A stretch of DNA of 32,000 bases from Geotalea uraniireducens Rf4 (GCF_000016745.1 NC_009483.1:3480001-3512000), one strand, 5' to 3'; positions 597-31,400 are shown, counted from the stretch's first letter. Notes: generated by a model not told the origin, from the letters alone. Numbers and translations are program-made.

Positions 597-676
597 CGGT
601 TGACCCCATTCCTGCCTGAAGCAAAGTCCCCTGCCCAGCAAAATTTCCGGGAGTAACAGCGTTATTCAACTTAAAT

Positions 677-708
677 AAAGCCCGGCCGGGATAACCCGGC
701 CGGGCTTT
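677..708. terminator. Bidirectional rho-independent terminator between convergent genes
   Basis: Perfect 14-bp stem AAAGCCCGGCCGGG / CCCGGCCGGGCTTT with loop ATAA. T-rich tails follow on both strands (CTTTATTGAG on plus, TTTATTTAAGTT on minus). It sits 81 nt after the plus-strand stop (596) and 32 nt after the minus-strand stop (740). Confidence 0.7.
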
Positions 709-739
709 ATTGAGAAGCAACTGTTGCATTATAGAACGA

Positions 740-15126: not shown

Positions 15127-15378
15127 ATGAAAACCGTTAAACTATCGAGCAAAGGCCAATTCATCCTCCCCAAGGCCATCCGCGACCGGCACCACTGGGA
15201 GGTGGGCACGGAATTCGTCATCATCGACCGGGGAGCGGAACTGGTCATCAAGCCGACCAAGGTCTTCCCGCCGACCGAATTGGAGCCCCCCGACGCCCCA
15301 TCGGTCTACAGGGGCAAGCCGCTCTCACTGGAGGAGATGGAACGGGCCGTCATGGTCGAAGCGGGGAAGCACAAATGA
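15127..15378 (+). CDS. vapB: AbrB/SpoVT-fold (MazE/VapB-type) antitoxin
   Basis: 83 aa. The N-terminal KLSSKGQFILPKAIRDRHHWEVGTEFVI fits the looped-hinge-helix AbrB-type motif. GGAGG lies 8 nt upstream of the ATG. The stop overlaps the next start in ATGA (15375-15378). Confidence 0.85.
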   Translation: MKTVKLSSKGQFILPKAIRDRHHWEVGTEFVIIDRGAELVIKPTKVFPPTELEPPDAPSVYRGKPLSLEEMERAVMVEAGKHK

Positions 15379-15776
15379 TCGCCGTCGACACGAACATCCT
15401 GGTGCGCTACGCGGTGAAGGACGACCGTAACCAGGCGGCGCTGGCAACCGATTTCCTCGCCAGGAACCGCTGTTTCGTCCTCAAGACCGTCCTCATCGAG
15501 CTAGCCTGGGTCCTCTCTTCGTCTGCCGGCTACAATCTCCCCCGGGAAAACGTTCATGAACGATTGCTCCACATTCTCGGCCTGCCGGACATTGAAACGG
15601 AAGATGCCGCCCACGTTGCCCAGGCTCTCACTTGGTACGCGGAAGGGATGGACTTCGCCGATGCCCTCCATCTCGCCGGCAGTGTGGAACTGGCAGGTCT
15701 TGCCACCTTTGACCGTAAATTTGTCGCAACTGCGGAAAAGCTCGACGCCGTTCCCTCGGTACTCCTCGTGCGATAA
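15375..15776 (+). CDS. vapC: PIN-domain ribonuclease toxin
   Basis: 133 aa. It begins MIAVDTNILVRY with the conserved first Asp, and further acidic landmarks are present (ELAWVL, DFADALH, TFDRKF). A 4-nt overlap with the upstream antitoxin gene is typical of vapBC. Confidence 0.9.
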   Translation: MIAVDTNILVRYAVKDDRNQAALATDFLARNRCFVLKTVLIELAWVLSSSAGYNLPRENVHERLLHILGLPDIETEDAAHVAQALTWYAEGMDFADALHLAGSVELAGLATFDRKFVATAEKLDAVPSVLLVR

Positions 15777-15827
15777 GCTCTTCCTTTTTCAATCCTTTCG
15801 AACCGAATTATTTTCTCTCACACTCGG
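15709..15827 (+). repeat. Direct repeat copy A: last 68 nt of vapC plus 51 nt downstream
   Basis: Hand alignment with 24277-24395 gives 119 nt with 8 mismatches and no gaps. Confidence 0.9.
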
Positions 15828-15882: not shown

Positions 15883-16887
15883 TTACTCAAGCCCAACATA
15901 TTCTATCTTTTCCAGGTTCTTAAATAAGTTACGCTTTGGGTCATATTCTAGGTTTCTTGTATAGTCTGGATTAAAGTAATATTTGAAAATAATCACAGCT
16001 GTATTTGGGCCTTTGGGATAGAATTTGATGTCTCCATGAATTTTGCCATACATGGCTCGAACTAATTTGCCATCCTTTTCCTCAGATCTAATCCTGAAAA
16101 TATAGTTATTATCGTCTTTAAAACTCTGCTTAACTGGTTCTGTTAGCGATAACTTTCTTGTTGCACTTATTGATTTATTATATCCATCTTCCGGAGCGTA
16201 TCTGGGAAGTTTGAATTCACTTCCAAATCTCCGATTATCCTTTATTAATTGTATTCCATCATATCTATTCGAAAACGTAATGGTTAACTCACTATCATAT
16301 TCATACTCTATTACATAAGTAGGGTGAAACTTGAAATTTTTGTTATTCAGCTTCAATATTAAATCAGAATGAAGACCTTTCCCATATGGCGCTACCCAGT
16401 CATATTCCATCAAATCAAAGCCGACACCAGATGTTATATCAGGTAATTTAATTTCCTTAGACATTTTAGAATCTCTTGCATACATCGGCACAGGGTTTTC
16501 GATTTTTCTCAATACTACATTAACAACTTGATCCCATGGTTGCCACTTGAGGCCCTCTGCCTTTCTAAATTGATATTCACCGTAATACTCGTAATAGCCA
16601 TTTTTGTTAATATGATAACTGACCCCACTCACTGTCTTATGCTTAACCCAACATGCTCCTTTAGCATCAGTCAGTACTCTCACAATATCTTCATTTGTTC
16701 CTTTATCTCTCATTACTGGCTGATCGAATCCAACGGAAATATCGGCCTTTTCAACTGGCGCCCCTTGTTCGTCAACTATATGAAATGATAATTTAGCTTC
16801 CGGTATTATAAAGGCCCACGTATGACTATATGAAATTGCAACGATGCTGATTACAGCAAACAGTGATAGGATTATATTCCTCATCAT
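15883..16887 (-). CDS. Exported protein of unknown function; member of the 4-copy family that follows the hydrolase tips (putative orphan immunity paralogue)
   Basis: The ORF track starts at TTG 16902. I prefer ATG 16887 because GAGGA lies 5 nt upstream (ggcGAGGAatcaaATG). The N-terminus MMRNIILSLFAVISIVAISYSHTWA is signal-like. The 3' ~660 nt are highly similar to 16930-17592. Conserved landmarks shared with 19668-20633 and 24505-25461 are R-K-[IK]-E-x-P, Y-[AV]-P-[EP]-x-G-Y and NP-x-x-x-RN[LV][ED][YF]D. Confidence 0.8.
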   Translation of the reverse strand: MMRNIILSLFAVISIVAISYSHTWAFIIPEAKLSFHIVDEQGAPVEKADISVGFDQPVMRDKGTNEDIVRVLTDAKGACWVKHKTVSGVSYHINKNGYYEYYGEYQFRKAEGLKWQPWDQVVNVVLRKIENPVPMYARDSKMSKEIKLPDITSGVGFDLMEYDWVAPYGKGLHSDLILKLNNKNFKFHPTYVIEYEYDSELTITFSNRYDGIQLIKDNRRFGSEFKLPRYAPEDGYNKSISATRKLSLTEPVKQSFKDDNNYIFRIRSEEKDGKLVRAMYGKIHGDIKFYPKGPNTAVIIFKYYFNPDYTRNLEYDPKRNLFKNLEKIEYVGLE

Positions 16888-16929
16888 TTGATTCCTCGCC
16901 AAGTTGGGAGAAACTGCGGTGTTCGTGAC

Positions 16930-17940
16930 TTACTCAAGCCCAACATATTCTATCTTTTCCAGATTCTTAAATAAGTTACGCTTTGGGTCATATTCCAGAT
17001 TTCTTGTATAGTCTGGATTAAGGTAGTATCTGAATATGATTACTGCCGTATTAAGCCCTTTTGGATTGAACTCAATCTCGCCTTGTATTTTCCCATACAT
17101 AGCCCTGATTAGCTTTCCATCTTTTTCCTCTGATCTGATTCTGAAAATATAATTGTTATCGTCCTTAAAACTCTGTTTAACTGGTTCTTTTAGCGATACT
17201 TTCCTTGTTGCACTCATTGATTTATTATATCCATCTTCCGGGGCATATCTGGGAAGTTTGAACTTGCTTCCAAATCTCCGACTATCCTTTATCAACTGTA
17301 TCCCATCGTATCTATTCGAAAACGTAATGGTCAGCTCACTATCATATTCATAGTCGATTACATAATTTGGGAGAAACTTAAAGTATTTATTGTTCAACTT
17401 GAATATTAAATCAGAATGAATACCTTTACCATACGGCGCTACCCAATCATATTCCATCAAATCAAAGCCGACACCTGATTTCACATCTGCTAAATCAGGT
17501 ATTTGCATTTTTTTAGACATTTTAGAGTCTCTGGCATACATCGGCACTGGATTTTCTATTTTTCTCAATACAACATTAATTATCTGATCCCAAGGTTGCC
17601 AACGATTTCCTTCAATTACTTTAAACTTATATTCACCATAACTTTCATAATAACCCTCTTTATTAGCTTCATATCCAATGTCACGTATTGTTCGGCCTGA
17701 AGCTGTAAATAACCCCTTGGCATCAGTTTCACCTTTAATGGATTCACTATCAATTCCTTGTTCGCCTTTTCTCGGCACTTGAAAGCCCATTTCTATTTTT
17801 ACATTTTTTACTGGCTCGCCTGTTTCATCAACTACACGCAGAGTAATCTTGGCATCAGGAATAGTAAACGCCCATAAACAGCCGCTTATTAGTGCCATCA
17901 TACTTATTGCGAACGATAACGAGATTAATTTTGCTTTCAT
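16930..17940 (-). CDS. Probable lipoprotein, tandem paralogue of 15883-16887 (putative orphan immunity paralogue)
   Basis: ATG at 17940 with GGGAGGA 8 nt upstream (the ORF track's TTG at 17943 is one codon earlier). The N-terminus MKAKLISLSFAISMMALISG/C contains a lipobox-like LISGC. The C-terminal ~215 aa are nearly identical to the neighbouring gene. Confidence 0.8.
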   Translation of the reverse strand: MKAKLISLSFAISMMALISGCLWAFTIPDAKITLRVVDETGEPVKNVKIEMGFQVPRKGEQGIDSESIKGETDAKGLFTASGRTIRDIGYEANKEGYYESYGEYKFKVIEGNRWQPWDQIINVVLRKIENPVPMYARDSKMSKKMQIPDLADVKSGVGFDLMEYDWVAPYGKGIHSDLIFKLNNKYFKFLPNYVIDYEYDSELTITFSNRYDGIQLIKDSRRFGSKFKLPRYAPEDGYNKSMSATRKVSLKEPVKQSFKDDNNYIFRIRSEEKDGKLIRAMYGKIQGEIEFNPKGLNTAVIIFRYYLNPDYTRNLEYDPKRNLFKNLEKIEYVGLE

Positions 17941-18216
17941 CAATTAAGTCCTCCCGAACTTGTAAATTGCTCGAATATTTTATAGATGTATAAGAATGCT
18001 ATTTTTTTGATATCATTGTGAAACCAGTTCTTTGGTGATTTTCTCTCGCTTGGCCACTTGTCCCCTAGCGTTTTGAATCTTGATTGCATGTCAAAATTGT
18101 TTTCAATATCAATACTTATTAGTTTGTTCTTCCCTGCCGCCAATGTCCTGGCAGGGAAAGCTTCCGCAAGCAGACGTGATCTGTTGTTACCGGCAAACTG
18201 ACTACCACCAGCTTCC

Positions 18217-18258
18217 GAAACAACCTTAAGGGGTCAACAAACAACCTTAAGGGGTCAA
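18217..18258. repeat. Tandem 2 x 21-nt REP-like unit ([G/C]AAACAACCTTAAGGGGTCAA)
   Basis: 18217-18237 and 18238-18258 differ only at the first base. The second copy overlaps the left inverted repeat of the RayT-like unit. The 13-mer CTTAAGGGGTCAA recurs at 24470-24482. Confidence 0.75.
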
Positions 18259-19290
18259 AGCTCCAAATATCAAATTTTCAGGATCGCTTTCACTTTCTCC
18301 ACCTCTGCACACAACTTTTTATCTTGAACCAACTTCCTCGAAAGTAGACGGCGCGCTTCTGCTATTGCGGTTTCACCTACGCCGAACAGATTGCCGATTT
18401 CACGTAGTTTCTTTCCGCTGTACTTATGGCAGAGATACATTCCCACCTGCCGCGCCTGCTTTTCTTTTTCCCCCACTACTGCCGCTACTGCCTTCAATAT
18501 CTCTTCCGGCTCCGGGTTTGACTTAAATTGCCGGATTCCTGGGACAGCTCTGTCTACACCTTTCTCCGAGAGATGTTCTGATGTCACCATTTCTATAAAT
18601 TCCGCCGTGCCGAGTACTGCTGCGCCAAATGTGTTCTGGAAGGGGCTGTCGTATTCCTTCCCAAGCAAGTCTTCCACAAATGTTCGATACTTCTTCATTG
18701 CTTCTTTTGTCTTTTTGCCGAAATAGTCGAGGATTGTCTCCATCTTCAGCCACGTGGGCGCGGTTCCTTGACCGATGTAGTTGTTGTAGCTGGACCAGCG
18801 GTATTCCTCTGGACGCGTAACCATTCCCGCCCTTACCGGGTTTAAATGTATATATCGTGATAGTTCCATCGCATATTCGTCTAATTCAACCAGTATCGCC
18901 TTGTATCGCCCCTGAAAAAGATGCCCTGACCTTTTCCGCTTGATGTTGAAATATGTCGTGTATGCTCCGTTTATGTGCCGCATGATCTGTGACAGATTGC
19001 CTACCGGCGTTTCCAGGAGCAGATGATAATGATTGCTCATCAGGCAATAGGCATGAACTACTCCCCCGTATCGCTCTGTTGCCGATTCCAGATACTCCAG
19101 AAACTTTTGTCGGTCTCTTTGGCTTTTGAATACGTCCTTTTGCTCGTTACCTCTTGATGTGACATGGTAAAATGCTCCTGGATATTCGATTCGTAGCGGT
19201 CGTGCCATGGCGTTCTCCTTTGACTGATAAGTTATTCCTTTATCATCGCAAAGTTTACCATGCTTTTTGATTTTTGGAGACTTGACCCTT
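18249..19290 (-). mobile_element. RayT-like (REPtron-like) unit 1: Y1 transposase gene bounded by imperfect inverted repeats
   Basis: The left end is AAGGGGTCAAAGCTCCAA (18249-18266) and the right end is TTGGAGACTTGACCCTT (19274-19290). About 15 of 18 positions are complementary. I saw no flanking target-site duplication. Total length is 1042 bp. Confidence 0.6.
18270..19208 (-). CDS. IS200/RayT-like Y1 (HUH) tyrosine transposase fused to a DnaA-C-terminal-like HTH
   Basis: Start taken at ATG 19208 with AAGGAG upstream. It is homologous from residue 1 to 23223-24173 (MARPLRIEYPGAFYHVTSRGNEQKDVF). The HUH motif is NHYHLLLE and the Tyr motif is RYIHLNPVRAG. The C-terminal YLCHKYSGKKLREIGNLFGVGETAIAEARRLL is DnaA-domain-IV-like. 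Confidence 0.85.
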   Translation of the reverse strand: MARPLRIEYPGAFYHVTSRGNEQKDVFKSQRDRQKFLEYLESATERYGGVVHAYCLMSNHYHLLLETPVGNLSQIMRHINGAYTTYFNIKRKRSGHLFQGRYKAILVELDEYAMELSRYIHLNPVRAGMVTRPEEYRWSSYNNYIGQGTAPTWLKMETILDYFGKKTKEAMKKYRTFVEDLLGKEYDSPFQNTFGAAVLGTAEFIEMVTSEHLSEKGVDRAVPGIRQFKSNPEPEEILKAVAAVVGEKEKQARQVGMYLCHKYSGKKLREIGNLFGVGETAIAEARRLLSRKLVQDKKLCAEVEKVKAILKI

Positions 19291-19302
19291 TTATTTTCTT
19301 TT

Positions 19303-19620
19303 ATTCGGGTCGAAACCTTCAGGCAGCGGTATGGAGATCTTGACCTCCTTCCGGACATTGATACCGCCGGTGTCCACATTCACTGCTCCGAGATACTTGC
19401 CTCTTGCCGGCACCGGATGTGGAAGTTCCGCCTCTGTAACCGGCGTAATCCTGATAACGGTAGGCCCGACCAGCGCACCTTCAGGGATTTCGAGGAGCAC
19501 ACCCCCGTCACCTTCCACCTTGCCCCCCTTGGCGGTGACAAGGTAGCTGTCGTCCGAACCCTTGAAGGTGGGGTACGAGATGGTGGTCTGGTTGCCGGAG
19601 TAGTCCAGCAGGACTACTGC
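19303..19620 (-). pseudogene. Relic internal fragment of a third giant-protein gene (ZU5-like segment)
   Basis: Encodes ...LLDYSGNQTTISYPTFKGSDDSYLVTAKGGKVEGDGGVLLEIPEGALVGPTVIRITPVTEAELPHPVPARGKYLGAVNVDTGGINVRKEVKISIPLPEGFDP. This parallels IMDNSGNQTLVSYLTFKSDDGNYLVTAKGGKVEGEGGSILDIPEGAL...LSMPLPDGFDP of the gene at about 30170-30490. Homology stops at both ends and no start or scaffold is present. Confidence 0.8.
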
Positions 19621-19667
19621 CAAAAAAATGAGTCAGTGAACAAATAAACAACGTCGCACCCCCTTCT

Positions 19668-20633
19668 CTATTGTGGCTTCGTCCCCATTCTTTCCGCTGA
19701 TGCATTTTTATTTGCTAGGTACGCCCTGTATTTATCACCATCGAAATCAAGATTCCTTTCACCCAAGGGGTTTGTCCATACTTCTGCTTTAAAAAATACC
19801 TCGCCATTTTGGTTGACAAATTTGATATCTAGATTTGAGTATATCCCACCACCCCTGCTCTTTATGTAGAGATAGGTTTTAAACATCTGACCATTGGTCA
19901 CCTTAACTTTATAAATATTTTTGTAACCGGTCTCTGGTGGCACATAGAGCATCTGGTCAAGAGCAATAATGCCGCTATCGGCATCAGGTGTTTCCAAGAT
20001 AAAGTTATAGGCATCTTCTGCGGAAATGTACTCTACTCGGGCCTTAAGGTCAGCATGTGCATTATCGCTGTGATACCTCTTAAGATAGTATGGTGCTCCA
20101 TCAACCATATCGACAAGATCAACCTCGTAGTATTTTACATCTTTTTTAAAAACTACAGATATGTCACCAGGGATGACAACCGTTGGGGGTTCTTTCTTGC
20201 GCATGGTGAATACTACAGGATTGTTTCTGTCAATAACTGTGCTGCCATCATTTTCATATTCATCATGACCTTTAGCTCGGTTAATCCTCAAATAGTCATA
20301 ACCAGAGGCAGTTATTTTATTAACCAACAGACCGCTTCCATTGATCGCGGAAACTTCAAAAATGCCTTGATTATCAGTTGACAACACAATTTCCTTTACA
20401 CCGACTGCTTGGATAATTTGGATAGAAACCTGTGCGCTAATTACGGGCAGATTGTTATTATCCAATACCTTTCCGTAGTATAAAATGGGTTTGTCAAGTG
20501 ATTTTAATACATTTGATATTGTAGTTTGTTTATCTATTTTACTTAGATCATCTGCAAAATTACACTTTGTAAAAACAGCCAGTCCTGCAACAAACACAAT
20601 AGTAACAATTAATATTTTATTTTTCACAATCAC
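19668..20633 (-). CDS. Signal/anchor-bearing protein immediately downstream of the orphan hydrolase tip (putative cognate immunity protein)
   Basis: 321 aa. The GTG at 20633 overlaps the AAGGGAG RBS, so GTG at 20627 (5-nt spacing) is an alternative start. The N-terminus is hydrophobic (KILIVTIVFVAGLAVFTKC), followed by a CarboxypepD_reg-like segment (ILYYGKVLDNNNLPVISAQVSIQI...TDNQGIFEVSAINGSGLLV). It is homologous along its whole length to 24505-25461. Confidence 0.8.
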   Translation of the reverse strand: MIVKNKILIVTIVFVAGLAVFTKCNFADDLSKIDKQTTISNVLKSLDKPILYYGKVLDNNNLPVISAQVSIQIIQAVGVKEIVLSTDNQGIFEVSAINGSGLLVNKITASGYDYLRINRAKGHDEYENDGSTVIDRNNPVVFTMRKKEPPTVVIPGDISVVFKKDVKYYEVDLVDMVDGAPYYLKRYHSDNAHADLKARVEYISAEDAYNFILETPDADSGIIALDQMLYVPPETGYKNIYKVKVTNGQMFKTYLYIKSRGGGIYSNLDIKFVNQNGEVFFKAEVWTNPLGERNLDFDGDKYRAYLANKNASAERMGTKPQ

Positions 20634-20640
20634 TCCCTTA

Positions 20641-23196
20641 TTAGTATGATGATGTCAATCTAAAATCTGACATGATTGCTTTCCAATAGCCTTTTTCTTG
20701 TATTATAGTTGATCTGAACTGTCTGCTATGAGAGTAATGCTTCGTATCGTAATCAAATAATACTTTAAGGTCTTTATTATTATCATTATAAAAATTATTG
20801 ATGGCAGAAGAAACTGCACCTATGGCTTTAGCTCGTGATTGTATAATTCTGCTGAATACTTCATATCTATCATCCGGCAGATATAATGGGAGAAGGCCAT
20901 TTAAGTGTATTGAACCAAGTGGAACGTAACTGTATGGAAAGTCAGGACGTGTCAAACTATTGAGTTCCCAAGCTGCATACCCCTCATCTCCTCTGCTCAA
21001 GGCAAAATCTAATCTATTAAAATAGTTAATGTGTTTTGCTTTTTGTGTACTTGAAGATAGGTATGGCTTATCTGAGGAGGTTTCGTTACCAGACATATAA
21101 TATCCAAAGATGTTAGCTGTAATAACAGTACCTGGAATCTTGGCTGCAAGGCTTTTCTCTGTTATCGTATTGTCATAATAATGCGCCGACAAGGCCGCCT
21201 GTGTAGCAATATAGGTATGGACTATTCCTGGCCCCGGCAATTTATTGATGGTTTCTCCTGATACGATACCACCCATACTATGACCGAGTAGCCGTATCTT
21301 GCCCTGATATTTCGTCATATCTCCGCTTAAGAGCAAATTTTTAAATGCTTCTGAGGAATTCCATGCCCTTATCTCACTTTCGTCGAAAGTAAGTGCACCT
21401 TCCAATGTCGGCCAACTAAACAAACCAACTTTTCCGGTATACCCTGACCACCAGAGCCGCTTGAACATAGTCTCGGCCCAACGCTCCTTCTCCACTTCTC
21501 CGTTCGTCATGTTCCAGCCATGAACATAGAAAATGTAGTCATTGTTTTTGGGCTGATAATCTCCCTTTCTGGTTGTGTAGGATGTCAACACTCTCTTGGC
21601 GAGATCATCATAAGCAACCTGATATTTGTCATAAAACCAAGTAATCGGTTTCAGGTCCAATTTTGCTGAATTTTCCTCAATGTCGACCCCATCCGATTTG
21701 AGACTAATAGTCAGATCACCTGTACCTGATGATTTACCTTCGAAAATGAAATGCGACGCCCCTGTACCCATCAGTACGTTAGCAGGTAAATCAGAGACAT
21801 TAACTGAATCAATCGTGACAATTCGTTTGTTATACAACTGTAGCAGGGCTGTCTTGTATTCACTTAGATATTTTGTACCATCTGTCACCGCCTCAAAAAG
21901 ATTTAGTGATGGATTTGTGCCATTAACGTTTTTGAATTGCAGTTGATATGAGAAAACCGGCGGCGGCGTATCGTGTGGCGCAGTAAGAAACTTGATGACA
22001 TTACGTGCATGTTCGTCTATCTGTATGTGAACTTGTGCAAAATCTTCCAAGTCGCGCAACGTATTAATTTGGTCAACTTCAGTGTCATTTGCGTCTGATG
22101 CACTTGAATATATATCATCATCAAAAAGACCAACTTCGGCATTTCTCACGTCTGGCCCGGTATCATGATCATCATTCACCCAGAAAGTATATTTCTTGTC
22201 TTCAGGATCATCGAATCTGATCTTCCCATCCCTATTTCCATCAAAGGCAATCCTGATCAGCTTCTCAAGCGGAATATTTTTGCGCCTCATCAACCTGCCG
22301 TCTTTGCGGTTGCTGAATTCAAAAATCGCCTTGGTCCCGATACTGCCAAAAACTGGCGCGATTGCCATCCCATCCACGGTGGTCAGTGTCAAATCGGCAG
22401 CCGGGAAGTTGGTGGCTATAAAGCGTTTGTTTGTCGGAGACGTTATTGTTTTTTTCAAGTCGGCATAGCAGTGCTCGTCACTTCCTTTGCGGAAAGACAG
22501 CAGATACTGCGTCGGGTGGTCTATACCGGGAAGAGGGTTGACAACAGCACCCTTGCGCGTTTTGATTACCATGCTACCTACCAGGTCGTCATCATTACAG
22601 TTGATATCCGGATCCTCGTACTTTACCTCGACGTAGTAGCGACGGTCATCCTCTCCGCCCTTACTGTATCCTATCTCGGGAACCTGAATATTGCTCTCAT
22701 TGTATACTCTTATGTCGTTGGTGTTAATACCCATTGTGCGCATACCTTTGGTCTGGTCCGCCATGTACAGCCAGCCGTCTTTTTCCGCCATGGCCGGGAT
22801 GGTGCCTATGGGAATCATCGCCGGGGATCCTTCCGGTGTTGTAGCGCCGGATGAGTTGGGCAGTTGGGTGATGGTGTTGATCAGCCGGGGATTTTTTGGG
22901 TCTTTCACATCCACTACCTGAATGGCGCTCAAGGTACTGACGATTGCCAGCCCCGTCTCTTTGTTCAAGGTTATATCGTAGGGATAGGAGACAACCTCTT
23001 TATCCAGGGCATCTTTGACCGTTGCCAGCGGTTGGGGGTTGTAGGGGTCGGTAAGGTCAACGGTCTTGAGTCGGCCGCCACCGCCGGTGAGGGCCAGGTC
23101 CATGCTCTGCGGGTTGCCGTCGGCATCGGCATAGCTGTAGTCGGACACACCCGCCACACGCAAGGCGTTCAGCTTTTTGGGCTCGATCACTCCCAT
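20641..23196 (-). CDS. 5'-truncated orphan copy of the 3' third of the giant gene at 25465-32000, ending in a diverged DUF900-like alpha/beta-hydrolase; possibly silent
   Basis: Homology to the full-length gene begins exactly at 23199 (QMGVIEPKKLNALRVAG...). The first in-frame ATG is at 23196, with no visible RBS. The 21 extra N-terminal residues in the ORF track (TTG 23259) are read from inside the transposase unit and overlap the transposase stop. Confidence 0.7.
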   Translation of the reverse strand: MGVIEPKKLNALRVAGVSDYSYADADGNPQSMDLALTGGGGRLKTVDLTDPYNPQPLATVKDALDKEVVSYPYDITLNKETGLAIVSTLSAIQVVDVKDPKNPRLINTITQLPNSSGATTPEGSPAMIPIGTIPAMAEKDGWLYMADQTKGMRTMGINTNDIRVYNESNIQVPEIGYSKGGEDDRRYYVEVKYEDPDINCNDDDLVGSMVIKTRKGAVVNPLPGIDHPTQYLLSFRKGSDEHCYADLKKTITSPTNKRFIATNFPAADLTLTTVDGMAIAPVFGSIGTKAIFEFSNRKDGRLMRRKNIPLEKLIRIAFDGNRDGKIRFDDPEDKKYTFWVNDDHDTGPDVRNAEVGLFDDDIYSSASDANDTEVDQINTLRDLEDFAQVHIQIDEHARNVIKFLTAPHDTPPPVFSYQLQFKNVNGTNPSLNLFEAVTDGTKYLSEYKTALLQLYNKRIVTIDSVNVSDLPANVLMGTGASHFIFEGKSSGTGDLTISLKSDGVDIEENSAKLDLKPITWFYDKYQVAYDDLAKRVLTSYTTRKGDYQPKNNDYIFYVHGWNMTNGEVEKERWAETMFKRLWWSGYTGKVGLFSWPTLEGALTFDESEIRAWNSSEAFKNLLLSGDMTKYQGKIRLLGHSMGGIVSGETINKLPGPGIVHTYIATQAALSAHYYDNTITEKSLAAKIPGTVITANIFGYYMSGNETSSDKPYLSSSTQKAKHINYFNRLDFALSRGDEGYAAWELNSLTRPDFPYSYVPLGSIHLNGLLPLYLPDDRYEVFSRIIQSRAKAIGAVSSAINNFYNDNNKDLKVLFDYDTKHYSHSRQFRSTIIQEKGYWKAIMSDFRLTSSY
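20644..21545 (-). other. Alpha/beta-hydrolase (DUF900-like) tip, orphan allele
   Basis: Landmarks are YVHGWNM, FSWPTLEG, FDESEIRAWNSSEA, GHSMGG (21268-21285), INYFNRLDFAL and KHYSHSRQFRS. Confidence 0.6.
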
Positions 23197-23199
23197 CTG
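22390..23199 (-). repeat. 810-bp block identical to 27361-28170 (recombination handle, orphan copy)
   Basis: Line-by-line comparison at a constant offset of 4971 nt found no mismatch. Identity ends abruptly at 23199/23200. On the other side it decays to roughly 80-85% over 22170-22389 and drops lower beyond that. Confidence 0.9.
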
Positions 23200-23210
23200 A
23201 GAAAAACTAG

Positions 23211-24252
23211 AGGGGTCAGGTCTCAACTTCTGACATACCCTAAATTTGCCTCTACCCAATCTACCATCTTCTTCACTTGTTGATCTTTCTCGGCCTTTAA
23301 TGCCAGCCTCCGGCTTGCCTGCGATACCGCCGCATCGCTTATTCCAAAACGTTCACCTATTTCCTTAAGCTTTGCTCCGCTATACTTCTGACAGCAATAA
23401 ATGCTCATATTTCTTATCAACTCGTCTCTTTCGCCGAGCACCGCATTGATTTCCTTTATGATTTCATCCATCGAAGGCCGGGTTGCCAGTTCCTTCACAG
23501 CCGGAACGCTCCGCTCTGCCCGTCTCTCTCCCAGATGCCTTTCCGATATTTCTCTTACAAATTCTTCACTTCCTAATACTGTCGAGGCTACCGTTGCTTT
23601 CAATGGGCTGTCGTATTCACTATCGAGAAGGTCTTCGACAAATTTCCGATACTTGTTTTTCACATCCGGTGCTTTCGTGCCAAAATAGCCGAGTATGAAT
23701 TCCGTCTTCAGCCAATCGGTCGCCTTGTTGTCTTGACCTATGTAACTTCGATAGCTGGACCACTGATATCCCTCCGGCTTAGCAACTATTCCCGCCCGTA
23801 CCGGATTCAGATGAATGTACCGTGAAAGCTCTGTCGCATATTCATCTGCTTCGACGAGTATCGCCTTGTATCGCCCCTGGAACAGATGACCGGCTCTCTT
23901 CCGCTTGACGTTGAAGTACGTTGTATATGCACCGTTTACATGCCGCATGATCTGCGAAAGGTTCCCGGATGGTGTTTCCAGCAGCAGGTGGTAATGGTTG
24001 CCCATCAGGCAGTAGGCATGGATTAACGCCCCGTACCGCTTTGTTGCCGATTCCAGATATTCCAGAAACTTTTCCCGATCCTTTTGACTCTTGAATACGT
24101 CCTTCTGTTCGTTTCCTCTCGACGTGACATGGTAAAATGCTCCAGGATATTCGATTCTTAAAGGCCGTGCCATCGCTTCCTCCTTTGATTGTTTTGGACT
24201 TTCTCAAACATATCAAAGAAGTTCTACCTGTCAAGAATTGAGACCTGACCCC
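23211..24252 (-). mobile_element. RayT-like (REPtron-like) unit 2: Y1 transposase gene bounded by perfect 16-bp inverted repeats
   Basis: AGGGGTCAGGTCTCAA (23211-23226) is the exact reverse complement of TTGAGACCTGACCCCT (24237-24252). Length is 1042 bp. I saw no target-site duplication. The left repeat overlaps the transposase stop codon. Confidence 0.7.
23223..24173 (-). CDS. IS200/RayT-like Y1 (HUH) tyrosine transposase fused to a DnaA-C-terminal-like HTH
   Basis: 316 aa, with ATG 24173 preceded by AAGGAGG. The HUH motif is NHYHLLLE and the Tyr motif is RYIHLNPVRAG. The C-terminal YCCQKYSGAKLKEIGERFGISDAAVSQASRRL is HTH-like. By eye it is roughly three-quarters identical to 18270-19208. 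Confidence 0.88.
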   Translation of the reverse strand: MARPLRIEYPGAFYHVTSRGNEQKDVFKSQKDREKFLEYLESATKRYGALIHAYCLMGNHYHLLLETPSGNLSQIMRHVNGAYTTYFNVKRKRAGHLFQGRYKAILVEADEYATELSRYIHLNPVRAGIVAKPEGYQWSSYRSYIGQDNKATDWLKTEFILGYFGTKAPDVKNKYRKFVEDLLDSEYDSPLKATVASTVLGSEEFVREISERHLGERRAERSVPAVKELATRPSMDEIIKEINAVLGERDELIRNMSIYCCQKYSGAKLKEIGERFGISDAAVSQASRRLALKAEKDQQVKKMVDWVEANLGYVRS

Positions 24253-24276
24253 TTTGGTTGCCCTCCTTTGGTTGCC

Positions 24277-24344
24277 CTTGACCGTAAATTTGCCGCAACC
24301 GCGGAAAAGCTCGACGCCGTTCCCTCGGTAATCCTCGTGCAATA
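24277..24344 (+). pseudogene. vapC 3'-terminal remnant (last ~22 codons only)
   Basis: Encodes ..DRKFAATAEKLDAVPSVILVQ*, compared with ..DRKFVATAEKLDAVPSVLLVR* for the intact vapC. No upstream PIN coding sequence is present. Confidence 0.85.
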
Positions 24345-24395
24345 AGCTCTTCCTTTTTCAATCCTTTCGAACTAAATCATTTTCTCTCGCACTCG
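24277..24395 (+). repeat. Direct repeat copy B of the vapC 3' end plus downstream sequence
   Basis: 111 of 119 nt are identical to 15709-15827, in the same orientation. The two copies bracket 8449 bp (15828-24276). Confidence 0.9.
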
Positions 24396-24456
24396 GCTGA
24401 GCGGATCGAGCTGGAAGTTAAACCGTTCAGAAATGCACTTAGAATGTGAATTCACC

Positions 24457-24494
24457 GCTTAAGAGAAAGCTTAAGGGGTCAAAGAAAGCTTAAG
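24457..24494. repeat. REP-like cluster: three GCTTAAG cores, AGAAAGCTTAAG x2, containing CTTAAGGGGTCAA
   Basis: GCTTAAG occurs at 24457, 24469 and 24488. AGAAAGCTTAAG occurs at 24464-24475 and 24483-24494 (period 19). The 13-mer CTTAAGGGGTCAA (24470-24482) is identical to the two copies at 18225-18237 and 18246-18258. Confidence 0.6.
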
Positions 24495-24504
24495 TGTACC
24501 TCTA

Positions 24505-25461
24505 CTATTTCTTTATCGTTGAAAATGTTTCAGTTTCCGCGTTCTTTTTATCCAAATACTGGCCATATAATTCTCCATCATAATCAACATTCCTTTCGCC
24601 GTTCGGATTCGTCCAACCTTTGACGACCATGACAGCTTTTTCTTTCGTTGCCTTAAAAGTAGTATCCAGCCTTGAATAAATCTGACCAGCACGACCTTTA
24701 ATGTATAAATACTTCTTCACCTTGGTATTTATTGGGACTGTGATTTGGAAAGTTTTCTGATATCCGCTTGCAGGTGGCACGTACAACATCTCGTCAAGAG
24801 CAATAATGCCGCTGTTTGCATCCTGTTCTTCAACAGTGATGGTATACGAAGAATCCGCTTCGGAATAAACTGCCTTGGCCCTCAGATCGATATGTAAGTT
24901 TTTGCTTTCGTAATTTTCTAAATACCCTTTCTCTCTTCCATCAAGTTTTACAAGATCAATTTCGTAATAAGGAATATTTTTTGTGAATACAATTGAAAAT
25001 TCTTCATTTAATACCAATGTTGGCGGTTCCTTTTTGCGAACGGTGTAAGTTACGGGGCTATCTTTCTTTGCCACGAATGAGCCGTCATTTTCAAAAGATG
25101 TTTCAGCTGTATCTACTGATTTATCATATTCATAACCTCGATTTTTAATATCAACTATCAAAATAGAGTTACCTTTAATGTTGCTGACTTCGAATCTTCC
25201 ACCGCTATCTGTCTTAATACCAAATTCCGCTATGCCATTAGAACTTCTCACATGGACAATCACATCAATGCCTTCAACAGGCGTGTTGAGATGATCAACC
25301 ACCCTACCATAGAAAAGAATGGGCTTGTCCATGGAGAGCAGTTCAAGATCTGCTCTATTGGCTTTATCTGCTTCGGTTAAATTCTGCGCGTGATTGCACT
25401 TTGAAGTAACAACCAAGACGCCTATTGTTAACAACACTACGAGAGGAATCAGTTTATTCAT
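24505..25461 (-). CDS. Signal/anchor-bearing protein immediately downstream of the full-length hydrolase tip (putative cognate immunity protein)
   Basis: 318 aa. The ATG at 25461 lies 3 nt after the upstream stop, and its AAGGAG RBS sits inside the last codons of the upstream gene. The N-terminus is MNKLIPLVVLLTIGVLVVTSKC, followed by a CarboxypepD_reg-like segment (ILFYGRVVDHLNTPVEGIDVIVHV...TDSGGRFEVSNIKGNSILIV). Confidence 0.85.
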   Translation of the reverse strand: MNKLIPLVVLLTIGVLVVTSKCNHAQNLTEADKANRADLELLSMDKPILFYGRVVDHLNTPVEGIDVIVHVRSSNGIAEFGIKTDSGGRFEVSNIKGNSILIVDIKNRGYEYDKSVDTAETSFENDGSFVAKKDSPVTYTVRKKEPPTLVLNEEFSIVFTKNIPYYEIDLVKLDGREKGYLENYESKNLHIDLRAKAVYSEADSSYTITVEEQDANSGIIALDEMLYVPPASGYQKTFQITVPINTKVKKYLYIKGRAGQIYSRLDTTFKATKEKAVMVVKGWTNPNGERNVDYDGELYGQYLDKKNAETETFSTIKK

Positions 25462-25464
25462 TTG

Positions 25465-28400
25465 CTACTCCTTTTCTATTGAGCTTTTTAGTTCAAAATC
25501 ACTAAAGATTGCTTTCCAGTATCCCTGCTCGTCAACAATATTTGAACGAAACTCCTTACTGTGAGAATAATGTTTGTCGTCATAACCAAACTTTTTAAGG
25601 TTTCGGCTCTTTTCAAATCCCTTAAGTGGCGTTTTGCTCGTCGCCCCCAATGCCTTGACCCGAGACTGAATTATTCTGCTGAATATCTCATAACGGTCAG
25701 CGGGAAATTTAAGCAGACTTGGCATGCTTAATCCGTCGTTCGAAATCCCCAATCTCACATAATAGTTGCTTCCGCCATCGATTGAATTCAGCAACGAGCT
25801 TATTATGCCTGGAATTGTCGGAAGCGGATCAAGCAACGTAAAACAAGCTACTGCTAGTCCGTTGCAATACAGGTAACCAGGATCGGGTCTGAACTTGGTA
25901 TTGAATTCCCACGCCATGAAACCACGTTCTCCGGCTGTCAAAGCATAGTCCACTTCGTTAAAATAATTGATGAACTTTGCCTTGCCGGTTGAATCTGCCA
26001 AATAGGTGGCATCTTGTGAGCCACTATTGCCTGAGTAGTAGTACCCAAATACATTCGGAGTTACCGGCAACAGAGGCAGACGCCGGCTACTCTCCGTCAC
26101 ACTATTGTCGTAGAAATGTGACGAAAGCGCTGCCTGTGTGGGAATGTACGTTTTAACGATGCCGGGACCCGACAGCTTCTGAATGGCCTCACCTGAAACT
26201 ATTCCTCCCATGCTATGCCCAAGCAACCTGATGTTTCCAGCATAATCCCTGAGCTTTATTTCAAGTACATCTTTTAGTGCTTCAGAAGAATTCCATGCCC
26301 TCAATTCGCTTCTGTCAAAGGTAGTACCTCTTGGAATGTCATAAGGTTTTTCAAGGGTAGGCCAACTGAACGATCCTACACGCCCTGTATACCCCTGCCA
26401 CCAAAGCCGTTTATAGATTGTTTCGGCCCACCGATCTTTCTCGATTTCACCTTGCATGTTCCAGCCGTGAACGAACAGGAGGTAATCTTTGTCTTTCGCT
26501 GGATATTCGCTTTTTTTGATCTCGCTGACCTGCGATCCGACTGTTTTGCTTCCCTCGTCATATGTGACCCTGAATTTGTCATAGAATGTCTGAATTGGCT
26601 TTAACTCCAGAAGCGCTGAATTTTCTTCTAAAGTATCGCCATCCGCCTTGAGGATAAAGGTGAGTTCTCCTTTGCCAAAGTTTCGCCCTTCAAAAATATA
26701 CGGCGACGTTTTATCCGTCGATATATAGGAGGGGGCGAGTTCTGATTCAGTAGATGAGATAGTAAGAAGCTTTGGTTTATCCAACTGCTTTCGTGCAGAA
26801 TTTTCATTCCACAAATATTTTTCAGTTTCACCAACAGCCTGGAAAATATTTATCTCAGGGGATGTACCGTTGGTATTATTGAACTTGAGATAATAACCGA
26901 AGCTCTTAGGTTGTGTCGTCTGATTTGATAATATCTCCATTACCTTCCTTGCGTGAGGATGAAGTTGCATTTGGACACGGGCAAAATCTTCAAGATCTCT
27001 CAGCGTTTTTATCTTGTCACCGTTTTCACGAACACAATCCTTAACTGTTCCGCTAATATTATCATCTTCTACTGGATAAGTAATTTTTGAGCCTTGGTTG
27101 ATGTCAGTATATTCGGTTTCATAACCATTGACATCATTATCATCATTCACCCAGAAGGTGTATTTCCTGTCCTCGGGGTTTTTAAAATCAATCACCCCAT
27201 CCCTATTTCCATCAAAGGCAATCCTGATCAGCTTCTCAAGCGGTATACTCTTGCGCCTCATGAGTCTCCCCTCTTTGCGACTGCTGAACTCGAATATCGC
27301 CTTTGTACCGATACTGCCGAAGACTGGCGCTATCGTCATCCCGTCTGGTGTGGTCAATTTCAAATCGGCAGCCGGGAAGTTGGTGGCTATAAAGCGTTTG
27401 TTTGTCGGAGACGTTATTGTTTTTTTCAAGTCGGCATAGCAGTGCTCGTCACTTCCTTTGCGGAAAGACAGCAGATACTGCGTCGGGTGGTCTATACCGG
27501 GAAGAGGGTTGACAACAGCACCCTTGCGCGTTTTGATTACCATGCTACCTACCAGGTCGTCATCATTACAGTTGATATCCGGATCCTCGTACTTTACCTC
27601 GACGTAGTAGCGACGGTCATCCTCTCCGCCCTTACTGTATCCTATCTCGGGAACCTGAATATTGCTCTCATTGTATACTCTTATGTCGTTGGTGTTAATA
27701 CCCATTGTGCGCATACCTTTGGTCTGGTCCGCCATGTACAGCCAGCCGTCTTTTTCCGCCATGGCCGGGATGGTGCCTATGGGAATCATCGCCGGGGATC
27801 CTTCCGGTGTTGTAGCGCCGGATGAGTTGGGCAGTTGGGTGATGGTGTTGATCAGCCGGGGATTTTTTGGGTCTTTCACATCCACTACCTGAATGGCGCT
27901 CAAGGTACTGACGATTGCCAGCCCCGTCTCTTTGTTCAAGGTTATATCGTAGGGATAGGAGACAACCTCTTTATCCAGGGCATCTTTGACCGTTGCCAGC
28001 GGTTGGGGGTTGTAGGGGTCGGTAAGGTCAACGGTCTTGAGTCGGCCGCCACCGCCGGTGAGGGCCAGGTCCATGCTCTGCGGGTTGCCGTCGGCATCGG
28101 CATAGCTGTAGTCGGACACACCCGCCACACGCAAGGCGTTCAGCTTTTTGGGCTCGATCACTCCCATCTGGACCGGCGTGGGGTTGTTGATATCCAGGGT
28201 TATCAGATAACCAGCGGTGGTGGTGAGGAGAGCCTTACCCGTTCCGTAGACCGCAATGTCGTTGGGCGAACCGTATCCCTGGCCGATACTGTCGAAGACA
28301 CCCACAATACTTGGGTTGTCTGCCGAGAAGCCGTCATAGCTGTCCTTGGCCTTACTGATGCTGACCACCTGCAGCGCCGCCGCAGCCGTGGCAATGTAGG

Positions 28401-31400
28401 CATATTCGCCGGCAAGGGCCAATCGGCCGGGTATCCCGGAATAGGCTTCGGCCAGCCGCTGTTTACCGATGATGGCCGGGTTTACCGGGTCGGTTTTGAT
28501 GTCGTAGAAGCGGATATAACCGTACTGGTTGCCGTCGCCGAAGACGATGTTCTCGGTCATGGCCATTATCCCGGCCGTTGGTGCGGGATGGACGGCGACT
28601 CCGCGGTAGCTCCAGCTGACGGCGGGGGCGCTCATGCTTTTACTGTAGACCACGGAGGGGTTGGTCGGATCGCTGACGTCGGCGACATGCCACCCCTGGT
28701 CGTCGGCGGCGATGTAGGCGTAGCTGTTGCCGTCATAGTGGTTGTACAGGGCGATGTCGCGCCCCCCCTTGAACTGTTCGGCTTCGGCCAGGTCATAGGC
28801 GGCGGGGCGTTTGGTGGTGAAAGTGCTCTGGTATCCCTGGGCCAGGGGCAAGAAGGCATTGTCGGCCGAGGGGTTGGGGTTGATGTCTACGATGCCTCCG
28901 GCGGGCAGTACCAGCACCTGTACCTGGTACTGCCGGTCGTAGGAGAGGTTGCCCCGTGGTGTGAGCACGGCCTGCATCCGGCCTCCTTCATATGAGGTGG
29001 TGATGATGGCCGGCATCGCCCGTCCGTTGCTGGTATCGATCAGTTTGAAGGTGGCCGGGGTGACGTTTTCCACCGGTTCGCTGAACCAGGCGGTGATCTG
29101 GGTGGTGACTGGGAGGTCCTTGGCGCCATCGGCTGGGGCGATGCTGTCCACGGTGGGGGCGCCGTCAACGCCGCCAGGTATGGCGCCGACCGCCACGACC
29201 CGCAGTTGGAGGGTCTTGGTGCTCTTGTTGGTGCTGGTGTCGGTGGCTTCGACCGTGAAGCGGTAGTTGCCGGCCAGGCCCGGCTTGCAGTTCGTGTCCT
29301 GGCTCCCCTGCAGTTCGGCGGGAAAGACCGCTTTGAAGGTATAGCGCCAGATGGCCGGCTTGTCGGCGGTGGGTGGGGATGAAAGTACCGCGCCCAGCCG
29401 GATAAGGGGTGCGGAGTATGACTGCCAGGTGGTCGCCTCCGGGCTCTTGTATTCCACCGTCAGAGTGGGGTTGACACTCGATTGGTCGCTGATGAACAGC
29501 GGCAGCTGCACTTCCGTCCCCAGCGGCATGGTGCCGGAGCTGATCCGGTTGGTCGGGGCTTGTCCGGGTGCCACCTGCATCGTCAGGTCGATGACCGGCG
29601 CGGTTTTGTCCGGCGGGATGGAGTTTTTGTCCGCCAGCATGAAGTTCAGGTTGGTGATCAGGTCGTGATCGACATCCATGAAGAGGGTGTGGCTTGTGCG
29701 GCGCATTGTCAGGGGGTGGATGGCGGTTATCCGGTAATCCAGCTGCATTGCCACGACGTAGGCATACAGGGTAGCGAACCCGGCATAAAAACCGCTGCTG
29801 TTTGAGTAGCTGACATAATCCCAGGCATCCGGGGTCCGGATGACGGCCCCCTTGATGGGACGGTCGTATTTGTAGACCGGGTTGCCGGAGGCATCGAAGG
29901 TTGGTATCTCGATAACTCCATACGGTGGCGGCTGATAGCCGGTCTGGTCGTTCATCTTCTGGTAGGTATAGCCGGAGACGATGCCTTTTTTCATTCCGCC
30001 GAAGGAGATGAAGGCAAAGGAGCCGATCTGGACGATGCCGGTGAATGGGGGGCTGGCGGTGGTGATACGGTTGTTGATTACCTTGGTGCTGTCGATGATT
30101 TCGTAGACCTTTTCTATGGTGCCGTCGGCGTTATAGATCTCGCTCGGGCGGTTGACAAAGACAGGGGTTGTGGGATCGAAGCCGTCCGGCAGCGGCATGG
30201 AGAGATGGACCTCCTTCTGGAAGTCGATCCCGCCGGTGTCGATATTGAATGCGGAGAGATACGTGCCCGGTGCCGGTACCGGACTTGCCAGGCTGGCTTC
30301 CGGCACAAAGGTCAGTTTGACAATCGTCGGCCCCGACAAAGCGCCTTCGGGGATATCGAGGATGCTCCCCCCCTCTCCTTCGACCTTGCCACCCTTGGCG
30401 GTGACCAGGTAGTTGCCGTCATCGCTTTTGAAGGTGAGGTACGAGACGAGCGTTTGATTCCCAGAGTTATCCATGATGACGATCTTTATCTCGTCGCCCA
30501 GTTGGCCTCTGACCTTGCCGGTAAAGGAGCCGTTGCCGGCCGGAACCACGGAAACTATCTCGCCGCTGGTGTCGTTGATGATGAGCACCGTACAGTCGGC
30601 AGGGGAGCTCCCTTGGGTGGCGGTGATGCTGATGAACCCATCAGCATCGGGAAAGCTCGCGGTGATGCTCCCTGCCGGCGGCATGGGAGGCGGAGTGGTG
30701 TTGCGGATGGTAAAGCCGGAGGTGACATCCTGGCCAAGGGGATATCCCTGGAGATCCTTGATCGTCCCGGCTATGGTGATGGTGTAACTCTGCTGCGACT
30801 TGAGCAGATCTGCCGGGGTGAAGGTGACGACCTTGCCGTCAACGCTGAAGGTGAATACACCGGGGACAGCCGTTCCGGCTGAGTCGAGGAGTTTGAGAGT
30901 TTGGGAGTTTATGGAGCTTTGATCCATGCTTTTGGAGAAGGTAATCACCACCGGCACGTTTGGCTGAATATTGATGCCCGTCGGCGACACTGAAACAACC
31001 GTCGGCAAGATCATCAGGATTTTGAGGTCAATGATTATTGCCTGGTTGGCCGCTATTGCGCCGGTAGCGCTCCCTTCGTCGTTCTTGTATAGATCCGTTG
31101 CAGTCGCGGTGACTGCGGCAACAGGCGCTGCCACAAGATATTTCCCGGTGGCTGCGGAAAGATCGATGAGCGAACCGTTGTCCGTCTTCACCAAAGCACC
31201 GTTGAAGGGGGCGTTGCTGGAATCGGTGACCGTGCCGGTGGCAAAGCCGATCTGCCCCTTGGCCTGGAGGAAGTAATAAACTCCGGAGGAGTTTATTGAG
31301 TTTGATGAGTTCAATGAGTTCTGGAGTTGGGAAGTTAACGGCTCTGTGGTGATGAAGGAGCCGTTCTGTCTGGCCAGGGCCACGAGCTTCAGCTTCTGAA

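Follow-up and report, generated by a model that had tools for sequence, protein, structure and literature searches.

We describe here a locus in a 32,000-nucleotide stretch of the Geotalea (Geobacter) uraniireducens Rf4 genome (NC_009483.1, 3480001-3512000; hereafter the window, in which positions are counted from the first letter). The locus encodes four exported proteins, A1, A2, B1 and B2, designated partners, along with larger proteins that end in a DUF900-type alpha/beta-hydrolase domain, designated the tip. The four partner genes had been proposed in an earlier reading made from the sequence alone (the sequence-only reading). All four open reading frames (ORFs) were present, with an N-terminal signal or lipobox that could be read from the sequence. 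The partner, tip and Y1 transposase-like genes all lie on the minus strand and are listed from the highest coordinates downward.

25465..31911, minus strand: main gene, 2148 codons that encode the C-terminal part of a giant exported protein, with Big_5, an LVIVD beta-propeller and a DUF900-type tip containing GHSMGG
27133..28170, minus strand: pre-tip 'constant' region of the main gene, 95.8% identical in DNA to 22162-23199 of the orphan cassette
24505..25461, minus strand: A1, 318 residues, exported, partner of the main tip
23223..24173, minus strand: Y1a, similar to IS200-like and repetitive extragenic palindrome (REP)-associated tyrosine transposases, with a C-terminal DnaA-like helix-turn-helix
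20641..23259, minus strand: orphan cassette 1, 872 codons, a main-gene copy that is truncated at its 5' end and carries a different tip, also with GHSMGG
19668..20633, minus strand: A2, 321 residues, exported, partner of the orphan tip
19291..19623, minus strand: 110-codon fragment of a paralogous stalk, 72% identical in DNA to 30173-30473 (mid-stalk of the main gene)
18270..19379, minus strand: Y1b, a second Y1 transposase-like gene, likely true start at 19208 (MARPLRIEYPG)
17943..18233, minus strand: tip remnant of about 85-97 codons, the C-terminus of a type-2 hydrolase tip
16930..17943, minus strand: B2, 336/337 residues, with an ISGC lipobox, predicted cognate of the decayed type-2 tip
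15883..16902, minus strand: B1 (Gura_3014), tandem paralogue of B2, likely start at 16887

The stop-to-stop ORF of the main gene spans 25468-31998 and its frame is still open at the window end, indicating that the true N-terminus lies outside the window. Related loci in other genomes are numbered L001 to L054. Type-1 tips are those of the window type and type-2 tips are those resembling the tip of L005. A literature search with the Gura locus tags gave no match.

The relationship among the four partners was examined first at the level of single sequences. A1 and A2, which had been called clear homologues, proved to be 43% identical over 315 residues (pairwise BLASTP, E = 2e-88), and B1 and B2 share 71% of their residues. 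Between the A and B pairs, BLASTP gave marginal results, one match at the C-terminal motif NPxxxRN[LV][DE][YF]D (E = 0.006) and a weak one at the N-terminus (E = 0.042). A hidden Markov model (HMM) built from A members only scored B members at 20-33 bits, which is not significant at whole-database scale. Such values are in line with the view that the two pairs are not homologous and have in common only a generic N-terminal beta-sandwich and chance motifs. As these data were too weak to decide the link, profile-profile comparison with controls was used instead, with homologues gathered by word-based search (9 for A and 1245 for B). With hhalign, the A family (10 sequences) matched the B family (32 sequences) with a Prob of 98.1% and E = 6.8e-14 over 252 columns, and a broad A-like profile (96 sequences) matched B with a Prob of 99.5% and E = 3.5e-23 over 248 columns. 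Because the N-terminal sandwich shared by the proteins is a common fold, the domains were also compared individually. The N-terminal domain alone gave a Prob of 98.7% and E = 3e-16 over 70 columns. The C-terminal domain alone gave a Prob of 98.1% and E = 8.7e-14 over 154 columns, whereas 11 controls, one reversed and ten column-shuffled B profiles, gave E values of 0.003-0.9. Each of the six sequence landmarks that had been proposed to link the pairs was aligned to its expected counterpart in the hhalign output, and all six are collinear between A and B. In addition, A and B types fill the same genomic slot and are found together in single arrays (L012, L028 and L049). Taking these results together, we regard an absence of homology as scarcely credible. 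The profile comparisons argue that the four partners are members of one real family, in which the tandem B pair is a distant branch, as had been suggested.

An exhaustive profile HMM search with the A profile against representatives of 50%-identity clusters returned 5768 cluster representatives at E <= 1e-3, 1835 at E <= 1e-10 and 207 at E <= 1e-30. The best matches were nearly all signal-bearing proteins of 300-400 residues. A word-based homologue search starting from the distant A-like representative P0154 returned only the query itself. A scan of larger family proteins for informative fusions revealed nothing beyond tandem duplications and tetratricopeptide (TPR) repeats, and a Pfam scan of a 1390-residue ORF in L043 that contains a B domain was without match.

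The partners are Sec-exported proteins of about 320-340 residues. In each, a signal or lipobox is followed by what is predicted to be a beta-sandwich of the transthyretin/CarboxypepD_reg-like kind and, after it, an all-beta C-terminal domain. A hydrophobic N-terminal signal is present at the start of all four window partners. B2 has a canonical ISGC lipobox, and many relatives of the B type carry L-x-G-C. The presence of a CarboxypepD_reg-like sandwich, another claim of the sequence-only reading, was borne out in part. In Pfam the window proteins remain below the cut-off for CarboxypepD_reg (PF13620, 32.3 bits), with 21.4 bits for A1, 12.7 for A2, 14.1 for B2 and no match for B1, and their other N-terminal matches, Big_1 and YtkA, are also sub-threshold. 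On the other hand, the relatives P0140, P0144 and P0181 exceed the cut-off at 34-41 bits, and the modelled N-terminal domain of B2 resembles such sandwiches in structure. In an AlphaFold2 model of B2 (pLDDT 87.8, pTM 0.78), a signal helix leads into a beta-sandwich (residues 30-125), and the C-terminal domain is all-beta. In a Foldseek search of the PDB with the full-length model, the N-terminal sandwich alone was matched (whole-query TM <= 0.24). The matches were to a teneurin CPD-like domain, the N-terminal extension (NTE) domain of SusC, intradiol dioxygenase cores and pilins, and included the transthyretin/CarboxypepD_reg-like sandwiches of 3e8v, a Bacteroides 'transglutaminase-family' fragment (TMt 0.64), and of 9hfj (TMt 0.72). 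As the full-length model was matched on the sandwich only, the C-terminal domain was modelled separately (pLDDT 79.4), and its best PDB match in Foldseek was no better than E = 0.11. A sequence-profile search of the PDB with the partner yielded noise only. The C-terminal 200 or so residues of the four partners are covered by no Pfam model, and NCBIfam gave nothing relevant. Judging from the models, the C-terminal fold appears to be one without a solved relative, in a large and unnamed family, and this agrees with the earlier statement that the family does not correspond to a named domain.

In the window the partner genes are closely coupled to tips. The ATG of A1 is found 3 nucleotides past the TAG of the main gene, with its Shine-Dalgarno sequence (AAGGAG) within the last codons of the main gene, and A2 starts 7 nucleotides past the TAA of the orphan tip, with the Shine-Dalgarno sequence AAGGGAG. 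B1 and B2 had been regarded as free-standing and as extra, unpaired immunity-like genes. This description still applies to B1, a tandem duplicate that alone lacks tip sequence upstream, but not to B2. The 97-codon ORF at 17943-18233 was scored as a tip by the tip profile (E = 9e-29), and its TGA overlaps the ATG of B2 by 1 nucleotide, with the Shine-Dalgarno sequence GGAGGA kept. Its translation reads LLAEAFPARTLAAGKN...HNDIKKIAFLYIYKIF...GGLN* and can be aligned with the L005 tip at its very C-terminus, LLADAIPARTLAAGKT...HGDVREIAFSYVYLLF...GGLR*. The best match of the remnant is a 95-residue orphan remnant in L016, which is also located right behind a Y1 gene, and the closest loci are the same set for the remnant and for B2. 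B2 is thus the partner of a decayed type-2 orphan cassette and not a loose gene. The stalk fragment at 19291-19623 is probably the 5' stub of this second orphan cassette, with Y1b lying between the stub and the tip remnant. The dN/dS ratio (nonsynonymous to synonymous substitution rates) between B1 and B2 is 0.15, indicating that both genes are maintained under purifying selection. Tip remnants of similar length (84-95 residues) were also seen in L016, L018 and L020, a hint that the truncation point is conserved.

We then considered the neighbourhoods of the family in other genomes. When GTDB species genomes were scanned with the B alignment, 33 loci were identified, in Geobacterales, Nitrospirota, Desulfuromonadales, Geotalea toluenoxydans and metagenome-assembled genomes (MAGs) of Verrucomicrobiota/Opitutales and Planctomycetota, and a metagenome scan with a closer A-like alignment identified 6 loci. 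Tips were called in all loci by applying jackhmmer-built tip profiles to six-frame ORFs. As a result, a tip ORF was found directly upstream of 36 of the 48 non-redundant family ORFs, either overlapping or at a distance of 15 nucleotides or less, with one at 232 nucleotides. A further five of the 48 were second copies within tip-partner arrays. The association with DUF900-like tips expected from the sequence-only reading is therefore present well outside the window. The upstream tip ORF is either full-length (1000-2300 residues) or a fragment of 68-370 residues. In L005 (Nitrospirae), for example, a B member overlaps the stop of a 1607-residue protein with a C-terminal DUF900 hydrolase and window-like pre-tip motifs (FWINDDDD and IRDLIDFFPV), and the same arrangement was seen in L007, L009/L010 and L011. 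Orphan tip-partner arrays were identified in L009, L011, L016, L020, L021, L025, L027/L035, L028 and L033.

The pairing of tips and partners follows a simple rule. Type-1 tips are followed by A-type partners (twice in the window, and in L012, with 43% identity to the window tips, L048 and L049), and type-2 tips by B-type partners in all other pairs. Pairwise identities of tips and partners are also correlated, with r = 0.91 overall and 0.80 within B-type pairs (Mantel p <= 5e-4). Both types can be present in a single array, as in L012 and L049, where a tip is followed by an A and then a B gene. In L028, a Verrucomicrobiota MAG (3-7030), a tip with a B partner is followed by an orphan tip and two A-like genes. 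This co-residence indicates that the two branches are interchangeable within one type of locus across phyla.

The tips themselves were recognized by the DUF900 model (PF05990, cut-off 20.5 bits) in the main protein (24.2 bits) and in L005 (24.0 bits), and the orphan tip and that of L007 scored 18.5 and 17.5 bits, respectively. Both window tips have GHSMGG as the nucleophile elbow, and the L005 tip has AHSLGN. A sequence search of the PDB with the orphan tip gave nothing useful. Tips among the other loci are 25-92% identical to one another. Residues 21-345 of the orphan protein and residues 1248-1572 of the main protein share about 99% identity, which drops to about 50% from the FWVNDD motif on. 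The corresponding DNA, the 1038-bp region listed above, is a likely substrate for homologous recombination, by which the tip could be switched together with its partner. The GC content is 0.60 for the stalk, drops stepwise to 0.52 for the constant region and to 0.41-0.44 for the tips, and is lowest for the partners (0.36-0.39), a gradient that fits horizontal exchange of tip-partner cassettes. The Pfam domains of the main protein are Big_5, LVIVD and DUF900, and those of its relatives are Transglut_core, Big_1 and DUF900. Full-length tip proteins of related loci begin with a Sec signal peptide, followed by the transglutaminase-core domain. The Sec signal implies that the tip passes through the periplasm of the producer, where the exported partner would be located. 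We also noticed a conserved acidic segment (DGNRDGxIxF...YxFWVNDDxD...LRDLEDFA) at the junction of constant and variable regions in both tip types, seen on comparing 25465-28170 with 20641-23199 in the window and in the related tips of L005 and L012. No Pfam model matches this segment, which could serve in Ca binding or in processing.

Based on these observations, we consider it reasonably probable that the partners are cognate immunity proteins of the DUF900-type tips in a polymorphic-toxin locus. The proposal draws on features that were observed directly: the partners are homologous and bear export signals, their genes are coupled to tips and paired with them by type, tips and partners co-vary, and the loci contain orphan arrays and sequence of foreign base composition. 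The sequence-only reading had tied its immunity interpretation to a profile relationship between A and B and to the adjacency of tips in other genomes. Both were found, and both support the interpretation. We infer that the tip would act as a membrane-damaging toxin and that the partner would neutralize it by binding. In this mechanism the partner, free or lipid-anchored in the periplasm, would bind and block the matching GxSxG lipase/phospholipase-like tip, guarding the envelope of the producer during export of its own tip and against tips delivered by kin. The locus would comprise the main toxin with A1, and orphan cassette 1 (constant region, alternative tip and A2) available for tip switching. 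Orphan cassette 2 would have decayed to the 97-codon tip remnant and B2 after disruption beside a Y1 transposase-like gene. B1, the tandem copy of B2, is under purifying selection and would retain protection against the type-2 tips of competitors.

Several points weigh against an immunity function. The role is one that we infer from gene order, co-variation and export signals, and the co-variation could partly reflect linkage and shared ancestry. No sequence or structural similarity to known immunity proteins was found in Pfam, NCBIfam, the PDB or Foldseek searches. B members are 46-60% identical across phyla with about 34 invariant residues, which is unusually conserved for an immunity family and would be equally compatible with a conserved role as an enzyme or a structural component. 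A-like members with no adjacent tip are found in L001, L013, L050, L053 and L054, and could be orphan immunity genes or a sign of a broader function. Finally, neither delivery domains nor secretion systems of the type V, type VI, type VII or Rhs kind were found in the window or in the 8-10-kb flanks of related loci. The last two points, together with the great size of the superfamily (1835 clusters at E <= 1e-10), would be accounted for if the partner were a general envelope or surface protein, for instance one involved in ligand binding or adhesion, that travels with these loci, and if the tip were an ordinary secreted esterase. Such a protein would not be expected to sit directly behind a tip ORF so often (36 of 48 cases, some of them behind tip fragments of no more than 68-97 codons), nor to be paired with and co-vary with a particular tip type. 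Moreover, the recombination region that orphan cassettes share with the main gene is a hallmark of conflict systems and not of housekeeping secretion. We therefore judge a general surface function to be highly unlikely. With regard to the genes that stand apart from tips, the A-like gene of L001-L004 (9788-10834) lies beside genes for an SNF2 helicase and an integrase, BREX-like genes and a convergent gene for a 281-residue Abhydrolase_1 protein, and that of L054 (1521-2600) adjoins a gene for a leucine-rich repeat protein with a PEP-CTERM-like tail.

We compared the locus with characterized systems. In common with the polymorphic toxins CdiA-CT/CdiI, Rhs-CT/RhsI and MafB, it has a giant exported protein, conserved in its body and variable in its enzymatic C-terminal tip, a small cognate gene immediately 3' of the tip (at 3 nucleotides, 7 nucleotides and with a 1-nucleotide overlap in the window), and downstream cassettes of a 5'-truncated orphan tip plus partner with a stretch nearly identical to the main gene. 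Low-GC, horizontally exchanged tips and mobile-element genes between cassettes are further common features. In contrast, no two-partner secretion (TPS)/FHA, Rhs/YD, PAAR/VgrG, LXG or MafB domain was found in the carriers, which are Sec-signal proteins with Transglut_core/Big_1 in related loci or Big_5/LVIVD in the window. Immunity proteins against nuclease toxins are typically small and cytoplasmic, whereas the partners are exported, well conserved and about 330 residues long. Neither the DUF900 tips nor the partner family is catalogued as toxin or immunity in Pfam or NCBIfam. By its gene content, the locus would correspond to the comparative-genomic definition of a polymorphic toxin system, apart from a trafficking domain or secretion system.

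Type VI secretion system (T6SS) lipase effectors and their antidotes, the Tle/Tli pairs, combine an envelope-acting lipase with an exported antidote. Tle1-5 and Tli resemble the present genes in that a GxSxG alpha/beta-hydrolase is encoded next to a partner with a signal peptide or lipoprotein signal, periplasmic action in our case being a working model. They differ in that no T6SS genes (vgrG, hcp or PAAR) were present among the window ORFs or in the annotated sequence flanking L005, L007, L009 and L011, and that no homology to known Tli proteins was found in Pfam or NCBIfam, with PDB similarity limited to the N-terminal sandwich. The hydrolase here is also the C-terminal domain of a protein of at least 2000 residues, and not a separate cargo effector. 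To our knowledge, DUF900 is not among the Pfam families that define the Tle classes. With respect to the activity of the DUF900 class, cinquedea, a secreted Haloferax protein of this class, was experimentally demonstrated to be a bactericidal phospholipase A, and most members of the family it typifies carry a DUF900-class domain (bioRxiv 10.64898/2026.06.10.730825). The tips belong to the same Pfam class, one that is able to kill bacteria through hydrolysis of membrane phospholipids. Cinquedea is archaeal, stands alone as a single-gene unit and has no partner gene beside it, whereas the tips in our loci are fused to a carrier and always accompanied by a partner gene.

The main rival to the immunity reading is that the partners are tip-specific helpers, such as a periplasmic foldase, a chaperone, an activator or an adaptor for export or anchoring, and not inhibitors. 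The tight translational coupling and the strict correspondence of tip and partner types fit a helper as well as an inhibitor, and the high conservation with invariant polar residues is more typical of a conserved mechanistic role. There is also precedent in the lipase-specific foldase Lif/LipB, a membrane-anchored periplasmic protein that is encoded directly downstream of its lipase and is specific for it, much as the exported partners are encoded immediately after a lipase-type gene. One report further describes a Tli of the T6SS that is needed to activate its Tle lipase (bioRxiv 10.1101/2023.03.28.534661). On the other hand, B2 and B1 are intact and under selection where the tip is a remnant or absent, that is, they persist without a functional lipase gene. 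Extra partner copies with no tip of their own are present in the arrays of L009, L012, L027 and L028. No match to lipase chaperones or other chaperones was obtained with Pfam and NCBIfam, and the predicted fold of the partner is all-beta after the signal helix, whereas Lif foldases are helical. Considering both sides, we think a helper function unlikely, and retain the immunity function as the preferred explanation.

If the immunity function is correct, it would provide a testable role, neutralization of DUF900-type lipase tips, for a superfamily of thousands of unannotated exported proteins that are presently labelled only as 'hypothetical' or 'carboxypeptidase regulatory-like'. It would also point to interbacterial conflict without known toxin-delivery scaffolds in Geobacter relatives, Nitrospirota and Verrucomicrobiota, which are environmentally important and poorly studied groups. 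The family contains a domain that is predicted with confidence and has no relative among solved structures, and a clear specificity code between tip and partner types is there to dissect. For annotation, a gene of this family may be taken to show where a hydrolase-tipped toxin gene, or what remains of one, ends on its 3' side.

The association with Y1 transposase-like genes may explain how the cassettes move. The two Y1 genes of the window scored 54.9 and 51.3 bits with Y1_Tnp (PF01797, cut-off 23), and Y1a scored 85.1 bits with REP_Tyr_transpos (NF047646, cut-off 80). Y1a is bracketed by 31-nucleotide imperfect inverted repeats (23205-23235 and 24229-24259) that are 84% complementary, and orphan cassette 1 starts 6 nucleotides past the inner repeat. 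Near the Y1 flanks, the minus strand carries three copies of the 11-mer GACCCCTTAAG (18225-18256 and 24470-24480), with 0.76 occurrences expected, and a fourth match with 1 mismatch is located at 14040, also on the minus strand. The inverted repeats and GACCCCTTAAG may represent element ends or recognition hairpins. We also considered whether the Y1 genes are recent copies of an insertion sequence; this is unlikely, as they are 77% identical over 590 bp and have no common ends.

Y1 genes co-oriented with the toxin genes recur in L011, L015, L016, L020, L024, L025, L027/L035, L029, L036 and L037. They occupy the slot after the partner gene, and some carry a DnaA-like helix-turn-helix. In many genomes the order is a tip protein and its partner, then a repeated unit of Y1, orphan tip and partner, and then a Y1 gene, after which come an exported protein of about 120 residues and a protein of more than 5000 residues with SQHop_cyclase_C/CARDB. 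The orphan tip starts a few nucleotides from the 3' end of a Y1 gene twice in the window and in L016, L020, L025 and L027/L035. Orphans with no adjoining Y1 gene are found in L009, L011, L028 and L033. The recurrent placement looks more like a grammar of the locus than random insertion, and the Y1 genes may be either target-specific insertion sequences or working parts of cassette exchange. A more far-reaching interpretation, which we offer tentatively and consider doubtful, is that Geobacterales, Nitrospirota, Verrucomicrobiota and related groups harbour an undescribed Sec-dependent polymorphic lipase-toxin system, with a new C-terminal fold for immunity and with Y1 (HUH) genes that belong to the locus and are no chance insertions; repeated units of Y1, 5'-truncated tip and partner would then serve to capture, park and exchange cassettes.

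Beyond the partner genes, the window contains three further features.

15706..15827, no strand assigned: copy of a 122-bp direct repeat holding the 3' end of vapC, 92.6% identical to 24275-24396
15127-15776, plus strand: vapBC pair, a MazE-type antitoxin and a PIN (VapC) toxin, between B1 and the gene for the 4761-residue protein
740-15025, minus strand: gene for a 4761-residue signal-bearing protein with five Big_5, eight CarboxypepD_reg and two Laminin_G_3 domains

The 122-bp repeats consist of the last 70 or so nucleotides of vapC and downstream sequence. They lie on either side of an 8.4-kb segment that holds all the Y1 genes, orphan cassettes and B genes, implying that this segment was brought in by insertion, or formed by recombination, between A1 and vapC. 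A MazE/PIN pair is also present in L005, about 4 kb from the partner gene. In related loci, an exported protein of about 117-190 residues with a weak type II secretion system (T2SS)-C-like match is always encoded just upstream of the giant downstream gene (L009, 10090-10443; L011, 13000-13356; also L015, L016, L024, L029, L036, L037 and others), and a counterpart was not detected in the window. The 4761-residue protein fills the downstream slot that is held elsewhere by the SQHop_cyclase_C/CARDB proteins, and its domains differ from theirs. At its C-terminus are four near-identical Gly-rich repeats of about 230 residues each (GYLGGW...GGGRIAIYYG).

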